Positions 3,001 to 6,000 of a stretch of 15,321 bases of DNA are shown piece by piece. The position numbers are program-made. The stretch is from IMG/VR virus record IMGVR_UViG_2703718673_000003, one strand, 5' to 3'. Within the stretch, counting starts at the first letter, position 1. Every line of letters starts with the position of its first letter. The DNA is from a virus (Duplodnaviria; Heunggongvirae; Uroviricota; Caudoviricetes).

Positions 3001-6000
3001 CGAATGCGTGGCTTTTCCTGCCTGCTCCATTTTGCGGATATACACTTCTGCAGCACTGCTTACCCCCAGCTGGGCAGCCTTAGCACGAAGCAACTCAGAA
3101 GAAGAAAGATTCTGGCGGGTTGCCTGCTCTTTAAGCTGACGGATAAACGCCACTTTCTGTCGGGTAGCCTCTTCCTCAGCCTGTGTAAGAACACGGGTTT
3201 TCGCCGTAACCTCAGAAATCAGCGCCAGATAATCCTGCTGACCAATCCCGCCACTGTTTCTGGCCTGTCGGATCTGTTGCTGAATACGCTGTAATTCCTG
3301 CAGCCCCGCACCGGCCTGTTTCACACTGTCAATCTGACGATAAAACGCAGCAGCCGCTTTATCCTGAGCCTCCGCCAGAGCCATGGCCTGCGCCTGTTCC
3401 TCGCGCATTTTCTGGCTCAGTGCCTCCATACGCTGGCGGGTTTGCTCCACCTCGCGGGCCATGCGTTCATGAGCCTGTGCGCTCTTCTCCACCGTCTGCG
3501 CATGGACGGATGCGGCTGTTGCAGCCGAAGAAGCCGCCTGCATTGTCTGCCGGGCGGCCTGAGTCTGACGCTCCATAAAACGCTGCATACGGGCAGAAGA
3601 CCGTTCTGCATCGCTGGCTGCACCATTCAGAAGGTTTTTGATACGGGGAATTTCATTTTTAAACTCTGCCGCATCAATCCCCAAATCAATGACCAGGTTG
3701 GCTATCTGGTCCATAACGCACACCTCCGGAAATACCTTCCCCAAGATGCATCAGTTCTTCGTCCGTTCGCTCCGGTATCCCGTTCTCTTCCGGTAAAAGG
3801 CTGAAATCAGCCACCGCAGCATCACTGCTACCGGACACCATTCTCACGATCAATGCCTTCAGCGAGGCAAACTGCGCATCCATCCACACATCACTGAAGC
3901 TCTGCATCCGGAAATAATCGCCCCACTCACCAAGCTCAGTGGCCGACATTTCCGACAGCATCCGCCGCCAGTCTGCCCGCCGGAACTCCCGGGCAAGCCG
4001 CATGACAAACTGCATTTCCCGCGTCAGGACTTTTCCGGCGTCAGCACCTCATGCTCCAAATCCCCGGCATTCTCAATGGCTCCCATACCGCTCAGCGACA
4101 GAACCATCTCCGCCCCCGCTCCCAGGGCATCATACGACCATGTTGTAATAACGGATGCGCAAAGCGTCTCAACATCCTGAGACTGTTCCGCATTCCACAG
4201 TGAGCGGGAAACCAGCCAAGCATTGATATCCATCCCCATCCGCAGAAAAGCAATCTGTCGTTCAGCCTCCGGCAGTTCTCCCTCTTCGGCATCAAACTTT
4301 GCCGTTCGCTGCTGAACAAACGCCAGATATTCAATTCTCTGCAGCCCGGACAGCTCACTGAGCACCACGGACTGCTTTTCATAATTAAACGTGCCCTGTT
4401 TCAGAAACATCATGTTCTCCACCTGCAAAAAAGCCCCGGATAACCGGGGCAAATGATGAGTATCGTCCTGTTAACCTGCAGCGCTGACAGTCACCGCAGC
4501 CACAGCCACAAAATTCCCGTCAGCGGTCATGCCCACAATGCTGACGCTGCCCTGCTTCACGCCTTTCACCGTGGCCACAAGTCCGTTCAGGGTCACAGTG
4601 GCTGTCTGTGGATCTGTCGAATGCACACTGATCGCTTTGTCACTGGCTCCGTCAGGTTTTACTGTAAAGGTCAGCGTGGTGGTTGCTCCCACATTGACAC
4701 TGGCGGATGCCGGTGCCACCGTCAGCCCGGTAACGCCCACAGTTTCAGTGCCCTCCTCTGCCAGATATGGACGCCCCACACCGCTGATTTTCACTGTGCG
4801 GGTCATCACGTCTTTTGAGGCAATGGTTTTACCCAGTGAGCTCAGCCAGCCGCGGAAAACATCAACAGTGCCGTTGGGATATTTGATACGAAACGCGCAG
4901 ACTTCACCGGAGTCGAACAACTGAACCAGTTTTTTCTGCCCGCTGTCACCCGGACGCCAGGCCAGCGTCGCCGAAGTATCACCAACGGATTTCTGCCCCT
5001 GGGTTGTCGTTTTCCAGTCTGCATCTTCATCATCGAGATAAGTGTCATCTTCTGCATCAGCGGTCATTTCGCCAGGTTGCAGATCCTTCACCATCGCAAG
5101 ACGCAGCCAGTCAGTGTCCGACAAAGGGTTCGCAAACGCATCGCCGTTGCCGGTATACATCCAGAACGTCGTCCCCGCACCTTTCGTCTTTGCCAGTGGA
5201 TTTGGCGTGGTCATTACCACCTCCTTAATTCGTGTACGTGATCTGGTACGTGATTTCCGCCATCGCCCAGGTGGCCATCTCATTATCACGTTGATAGTTA
5301 AAACCGAGTGGGATCAGGGTGTCGATGAGTCCGGAAAGTGCCGATACATCATTCAGGGCCGGGAAAATGGTGCTCTCCATCCACATATCCAGCTCTGAAT
5401 CCGGTGCCTGTGCCCGGATGAAGACAGCAATATGCAGAACAGCCTGCCAGTCATCTTCATCCGTCATTTTTCCGGTGTACTGAGCATCACTCAGCCACAC
5501 CGCCACGGCAGGCAGTTCCTGCGCATCAACAAATGCCGGAAGCCCGTCAAAAAACGTGGCGCTGTCTCCACACTGTTCCCGAAGGCGTGCCAGTACGACC
5601 TGGCGGATTTGTGTATGTCGGTTCATCGGGTCAGCCATAACCTCAGTTGTTGTTTCAGTGCATACCCCAGCTGTTTCGGCATTTCCGCAGCAATGATGCG
5701 GTCGCGGGCATCTTCAAATGCCTGTGTCAGCGGTCCGGACAGCGGGATTTTCACCACATCAATGGGGTAACGATTTTTGCCATCAATACGCCGCATCACA
5801 TGCCAGCGACCATTCGCCAGTTGCTGAATAAACGCATCCCGGAAAAGATATTTACCCACCTTCAGCACACTGCCACGGTACTGCAGTTTTCCACCACGCT
5901 GGGCCAGTCTGACCCGGGCTGTCCCCAGCTTAATGGCGGGCAGATTGCCCCGGTTAACGCGGATCCTGGCCGTCATTTTTCCTGACGGACTGGCTTTAAA

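Follow-up and report, generated by a model that had tools for sequence, protein, structure and literature searches.

The subject here is the junction between tail genes G and T on the minus strand of IMG/VR record IMGVR_UViG_2703718673_000003, a 15,321-nucleotide stretch of Caudoviricetes DNA which, in its entirety, will be described as ‘the window’. Very probably this junction is the site of a standard, lambda-type programmed −1 ribosomal frameshift, one which takes place at the heptamer G GAA AAG and which yields a G-T fusion protein (GT). What can be read directly from the window and its relatives is the geometry of the two reading frames, the homology of G and T to known tail genes, the orthologous position of the slip codons, and the conservation of the heptamer. 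From these we infer that the fusion is produced and also, in more conditional terms, its amount and the joint slipping of two tRNAs.

G matches the Pfam family Phage_TAC_2 (E=1.8e-39) and T the family Phage_tail_T (E=4.4e-15), and by that homology the two are a genuine lambda-type tail assembly chaperone pair. In the zero frame, i.e., that of G, the minus strand reads ...GAG GTG CTG ACG CCG GAA AAG TCC TGA, while the −1 frame is open from position 4048 (GGT GCT GAC GCC GGA AAA GTC CTG...) through to the stop which ends T. As a preliminary description of the junction had claimed, T thus lies in the −1 frame relative to G, and translation of both frames finds them simultaneously open only across a single, 22-nucleotide stretch (Table 1). 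Equally borne out by the sequence is its claim that G GAA AAG is the sole slippery-like sequence found there. It is, that is, the only site within the overlap at which an A-site codon can re-pair cognately one base back, namely AAG on AAA, just as had been proposed. The A-site half of the heptamer in this way agrees with the canonical X_XXY_YYZ pattern, with a single E. coli tRNA-Lys reading both AAA and AAG (PMC5009743). The P-site half instead departs from that pattern, as heptamer positions 1 to 3 are G G A rather than three identical bases. Re-pairing of GAA on GGA was described earlier as poor, and a weaker re-pairing than lambda's would agree with in vitro data (PMC6924986), but it would be better described as intermediate, with positions 1 and 3 being Watson-Crick (G-C and A-U, respectively) and the middle position G.U. 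Slippage at G GAA AAG is predicted to give the junction ...LTPEK|VLTREMQF..., i.e., the peptide that had been put forward, within a GT fusion of 242 aa consisting of G residues 1-128 plus T.

Table 1. Features of the G-T region and neighbouring genes, as positions in the window
Feature	Position	Strand	Basis
Slip heptamer G GAA AAG, in zero-frame register	4030..4036	-	sequence; orthology to lambda G GGA AAG; conservation; N15/phi80/LLS annotation
Stretch of 22 nt with G frame and −1 frame both open, as nowhere else	4027..4048	-	translation of both frames
TGA closing the −1 (T) frame upstream, bounding where a shift is possible	4049..4051	-	translation
Gene G, tail assembly chaperone, 129 aa (ATG 4413..4411; stop TGA 4026..4024)	4024..4413	-	translation; Pfam; Ayreon annotation as GpG-like chaperone
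T segment, −1 frame, 114 aa, VLTREMQF...PGH (stop 3688..3686)	3686..4030	-	translation; Pfam
ATG used as separate T start (109-aa gene), probably spurious	4013..4015	-	GenBank; PGAP; but CTG, CTT, or GTG in other lineages
Shine-Dalgarno-like GAGGTG, 9-10 nt upstream of heptamer; candidate dnaX-style stimulator, unsupported by controls	4045..4050	-	anti-SD duplex, -6.9 kcal/mol
Major tail gene V	5214..4471	-	ORF list; Ayreon annotation
Terminator-like hairpin, then T6, between V and G; context, outside slip signal	4433..4450	-	sequence; also annotated in Ayreon, mEp460, N15, HK225
Tape measure gene H (ATG at 3714)	649..3714	-	ORF list; Ayreon annotation

The motif GGAAAAG, merely as counted across the window, is uninformative by itself, with six copies observed versus 2.3 expected and with six or more found in 5 of 200 shuffles. 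The real evidence instead is comparative. Homologous G/T loci were gathered from viral contigs, from species-representative genomes, and from GenBank phages, resulting in 160 loci with complete junctions which form 16 clusters at 80% GT identity. (A viral-contig scan seeded with a Symbiopectobacterium G protein supplied no matches.) In all 160 there is exactly one in-register slip heptamer inside of the overlap, and it is found at the same aligned position, which is the outcome of the comparison with related phages that the preliminary description had recommended. That position in the window is the codon pair which is orthologous to lambda's proven G GGA AAG. With GT fusions built by shifting at the heptamer, the K|V junction column is aligned over 11 clusters and the T side is gapless; at the nucleotide level, 17 diverged lineages align without gaps over 90 nt from the heptamer onward.

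What varies among these loci is the heptamer's identity. G GAA AAG is kept in 137 of the 160 loci and in 10 of the 16 clusters, proportions which are biased as sampling was seeded from the window; these clusters are those of this phage type, of Gifsy-1, Fels-1, and Gifsy-2, of N15/HK225, of phi80/LLS/mEp043, and of four lineages that come from other Enterobacteriaceae. Three clusters possess G GGA AAG (lambda, a Serratia/Symbiopectobacterium lineage, and an E. albertii/Stx2a lineage), two possess C CCA AAA (Vibrio phages), and one possesses A AAA AAG (Stx phages), the latter being the dnaX heptamer as found at the orthologous position. At this one position, as judged across these alignments, the G-T family thus accommodates no fewer than four heptamers. 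G GAA AAG and G GGA AAG, furthermore, are each found with the G stop either one or five codons further on, and both are contained in one of the clusters as defined at 60% identity, which together imply that these two G-type forms have been interchanged more than once. From this sampling G GAA AAG is clearly a common rather than an odd form, indeed the commonest variant among the sampled relatives, despite the seeding bias. To call the heptamer ‘non-canonical’, as was done initially, consequently is correct in the sense that it is not lambda's G GGA AAG, but the novelty which this implied was overstated, as the same heptamer is already annotated in N15, phi80, and LLS.

Two side observations may be recorded with regard to these searches. 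Within the window, the other minus-strand copies of GGAAAAG that lie inside of open reading frames (3012..3018, 6579..6585, and 14776..14782) are all, by frame arithmetic, in the non-slip register GGA AAA G, to which with only three copies no significance is attached. Among the species-representative genomes, moreover, G matches as close to the query as is lambda's were found on short, often very-low-coverage contigs of unrelated bacteria, i.e., of Neobacillus, Oceanobacillus, Kitasatospora, Shewanella, Leeuwenhoekiella, Pseudoxanthomonas, and others. Where complete, their junctions are exactly lambda's junction sequence, and these contigs almost certainly represent contamination of assemblies with lambda DNA.

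The process envisaged is as follows. A small share of G-translating ribosomes would slip back by one nucleotide at G GAA AAG (4036..4030, minus strand), doing so while the P site holds tRNA-Glu paired to GAA and the A site holds tRNA-Lys paired to AAG. Following the slip, the tRNA-Lys would be cognately paired on AAA while the tRNA-Glu would be paired on GGA with a central G.U. Reading would then resume in the −1 frame as GTC CTG ACG..., with the G stop bypassed, and would continue on to the end of the 242-aa fusion. Judging from the homologous lambda system, the tape measure protein would then be coated by numerous copies of G along with few of GT, with the T part recruiting major tail protein. 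A flanking RNA stimulator apparently is not required for the slip.

An alternative which gives rise to the identical product, and which sequence alone therefore cannot separate from the above, is that tRNA-Lys slips by itself, from AAG to AAA, either in the A site or instead in the P site after translocation, as at the NNA_AAG sites of IS1222 and Bacillus cdd, with the upstream G GA playing no re-pairing role. There is precedent, as in E. coli a −1 shift can occur on A_AAG by itself, indeed the most shift-prone tetramer in that organism (PMC4066793), and IS1222 uses G_CGA_AAG (PMC5009743). With only A_AAG constrained, however, the bases 5' of it should be free to vary, and this expectation is not what is seen. 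That is, heptamer position 1 agrees with the base that opens the P-site codon in 33 of 33 distinct contexts. A P-site GAA or GGA is preceded by G (as the last base of CCG, GCG, ACG, or GTG), AAA by A (in TCA), and CCA by C (in GAC). Position 1 in these contexts is the degenerate third base of a Pro, Ala, Thr, Val, Ser, or Asp codon, i.e., of codons for six different amino acids, and translation in the −1 frame never includes it. The adjacent Thr codon, by comparison, varies freely as ACG, ACA, ACC, or ACT, and the NNG share of those codon families in the tail genes of this phage is just 0.25-0.49. Invariance of position 1 without a coding constraint is a signature of P-site re-pairing, implying that the P-site tRNA re-pairs too; it is explained only if that tRNA must retain its first-position pair once it has slipped. 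Tandem slippage involving near-cognate re-pairing in the P site (G-C, G.U, A-U) accordingly is favoured by these contexts over slippage of tRNA-Lys only, which can be considered unlikely. Such re-pairing also has standing in the literature, with G_GA a recognized X_XX intermediate between NNA_AAG hexamers and full heptamers (Atkins et al. review, PMC5009743), and with GAA to GGA re-pairing through G.U discussed in the PRFect paper (PMC10885494).

Two further explanations do without a ribosomal shift altogether. T might be translated independently, from an in-frame ATG (4015..4013) at which the mEp460 and PGAP annotations begin T. In other lineages, however, this ATG is CTG, CTT, or GTG, so that T lacks a conserved start of its own, and in every one the −1 frame extends without a stop back across the heptamer. 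Upstream of the ATG there is just one purine-rich run, GGGAA, and it ends approximately 1 nt away, which is too close for a ribosome binding site. As lambda's GT binds the tape measure via its G part (PMC5009743), free T would lack that function as well, and independent translation of T is, on balance, highly improbable. The G-T split might, from a different perspective, reflect RNA polymerase slippage on the run of A residues, or else simply a sequencing error in, or pseudogenization of, a once-fused gene. A short A run is present, but this is a run of just four, with known slippage-prone tracts being considerably longer. Transcriptional slippage does change frame in other systems (PMC5009743), but conservation of the heptamer's zero-frame register is relevant to ribosomes alone. 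Sequencing error, in turn, is ruled out by the identical split junction being found in 1846 of 5426 complete E. coli genomes along with many independent phage isolates. These last explanations can, as a group, be assigned next to no probability.

Weighing against production of the fusion by frameshifting at G GAA AAG, nonetheless, are a number of points. To our knowledge there is no protein-level evidence of it, either for this phage or for any G GAA AAG site, and in public records T is annotated as a separate gene. No stimulator that might raise the yield was found near the heptamer. Translation of G GAA AAG in a reconstituted system from E. coli gives rise, with wild-type EF-G, mainly to zero-frame product (PMC6924986), and A_AAG without a stimulator barely exceeds background in vivo (Sharma et al., PMC4066793).

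With regard to stimulators, folding of the 50 and the 90 nt following the heptamer gives z-scores of +0.38 and -1.09, respectively, as relative to shuffles, neither of which is significant. A consensus fold of the 17 lineages comes to -1.6 kcal/mol with no covariation, its only invariant stem being one of 4 pairs that is located 60 nt away. On the basis of those z-scores and of that consensus, a conserved downstream stimulatory structure was rejected as a candidate. Upstream, a Shine-Dalgarno-like (SD-like) element, GAGGTG, appeared at first to be promising as something which might compensate for a weaker heptamer: anti-SD energies of -5 kcal/mol or better are seen in 6 of 8 G GAA AAG clusters versus 0 of 3 G GGA AAG clusters, as against a background probability of 0.21. 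The element failed each of three controls, however. Synonymous-codon resampling gives P values from 0.13 to 1.0, with P=0.28 for the window; distal control windows, taken from more 5' parts of the acidic linker in which the element lies, score equally well for anti-SD pairing; and the element is absent from N15, HK225, phi80, LLS, mEp043, and the L099 lineage. GAGGTG is indistinguishable from chance and is treated here as an unsupported stimulator. Within the window there is also no phage-encoded tRNA that could alter slippage.

How much fusion might be expected can be considered in light of lambda, in which frameshifting is at ~4%, with ~96% of ribosomes remaining in frame and a G:GT ratio of ~30:1 (PMC3296357; PMC5009743). 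It is for lambda only that a G-T fusion is known to be produced at a low, fixed ratio and to be required in tail assembly (PMC5009743; PMC3296357). In the in vitro work of Peng et al., the slippery sequence was G GGA AAG, with G GAA AAG as its less slippery control (PMC6924986), and this agrees with the suggestion from the preliminary description that efficiency may differ from that of lambda. Sharma et al. found that A_AAG combined with a pseudoknot attains roughly one-tenth the level of the best heptamers (PMC4066793). In the literature, no measurement of frameshifting at any G GAA AAG phage site was found. By analogy with these in vitro results, a GT yield that is below lambda's is plausible here. 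A more elaborate suggestion is that G GAA AAG could set GT:G at markedly under lambda's ~1:30 throughout a widespread group of E. coli prophages, possibly in combination with a greater sensitivity to host tRNA thiolation and with partial compensation by GAGGTG. With respect to thiolation, the reasoning is that tRNA-Glu and tRNA-Lys both carry mnm5s2U34, such that the ratio would perhaps be more thiolation-sensitive than is that of lambda. This combined suggestion might hold, its support being the published in vitro difference, but as a whole it is rather doubtful.

The G GAA AAG slip site is itself already known, as it is on record for three phages. The N15 record includes a feature described as ‘slippery sequence for -1 translational frameshift’, the sequence of which was confirmed as GGAAAAG. 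That of phi80 holds a slippery-sequence feature, GGAAAAG, along with a joined gpG-T coding sequence, and that of LLS a ‘minus-one programmed translational frameshift site GGAAAAG’ with a joined G-T coding sequence. What is missing for this phage type in public records is the frameshift annotation itself. An annotation of T as separate, that is, probably misses the G-T fusion, with the second product likely being the 242-aa fusion. The resulting gap is not a small one, as roughly one in three complete E. coli genomes carries this junction, in prophages, with G and T listed as two genes by RefSeq and by most phage records. It may be appreciated as well that lambda's textbook G GGA AAG is a minority form in the sampled relatives and that strict X XXY YYZ searches will miss most such sites. 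Particularly, the ‘less slippery’ in vitro control would seem to be a naturally used programmed site, one that forms with G GGA AAG a natural pair for considering the contribution of P-site re-pairing.

Taken as a whole, the window corresponds to the head-tail module from a lambdoid phage or prophage, with genes on the minus strand, and phages that are 97-98% identical to the whole of it include vB_EcoS-569R4 and PhiR55_1. Over the G-T region, Escherichia phage Ayreon is 100% identical, with cdtI, mEp460, and others at 97-99%. The Ayreon record, which is 99.7% identical, has an annotation that was used, along with the list of open reading frames (ORFs), for gene order, i.e., V, G, T, and then tape measure gene H, which matches that of lambda. 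The end of T and the start codon of H share 29 nt (3686..3714, minus strand), and GT termination and H initiation may, given that overlap, be translationally coupled. The terminator-like hairpin between V and G is a strong one, with 7 G-C pairs along with the T6 run, and it may leave G, T, and H less transcribed than V.

A number of known systems invite comparison. E. coli dnaX, with A AAA AAG, is alike in that slippage at an A-site AAG depends on the one tRNA-Lys of E. coli, and its SD-like element lies ~10 nt upstream of the slip site, versus 9-10 nt for GAGGTG here. It differs in possessing a downstream hairpin, for which there is no counterpart here, and the SD-like element of this junction is neither significant nor conserved. 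For dnaX a very high level of frameshifting, about half, is reported; a far lower efficiency is expected here. IS1222, with G_CGA_AAG, and Bacillus subtilis cdd, with A_CGA_AAG, likewise combine an A-site AAG to AAA slip with imperfect P-site re-pairing (PMC5009743). The G_GA-type heptamers of insect flaviviruses, dianthoviruses, and mesoniviruses have an imperfect P site as well but differ in their U-rich second codon and in being read by eukaryotic ribosomes. NNA_AAG and G_GA-type sites usually depend on a pseudoknot or hairpin that follows them, whereas none is conserved here.

Other comparisons are with the tail genes of phages. In lambda, G and T are homologous, the slip codon pair is orthologous, and it is low-level frameshifting which sets the G:GT ratio, but there it is tRNA-Gly that re-pairs, from GGA to GGG, rather than, as would be the case here, tRNA-Glu from GAA to GGA, and G is only 34% identical. 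The Salmonella prophages Gifsy-1, Gifsy-2, and Fels-1 are the closest of the diverged relatives, at 67-70% nucleotide identity and with the same ...CCG GAA AAG (T/C)CC TGA, though their linker upstream of the heptamer is unrelated. Their records mark no slip site, while those of Gifsy-1 and Gifsy-2 do describe T as part of G via translational frameshifting. N15 gene 14/15 (NC_001901), phi80 gpG/gpG-T (FN582354), and LLS genes 11/12 (PQ299149) differ in having T segments that are only 41-43% identical, five codons rather than one from heptamer to G stop, and no SD-like element just upstream. These three display the same gene pair, placed likewise between V and H, with the same GGAAAAG at the same aligned position.

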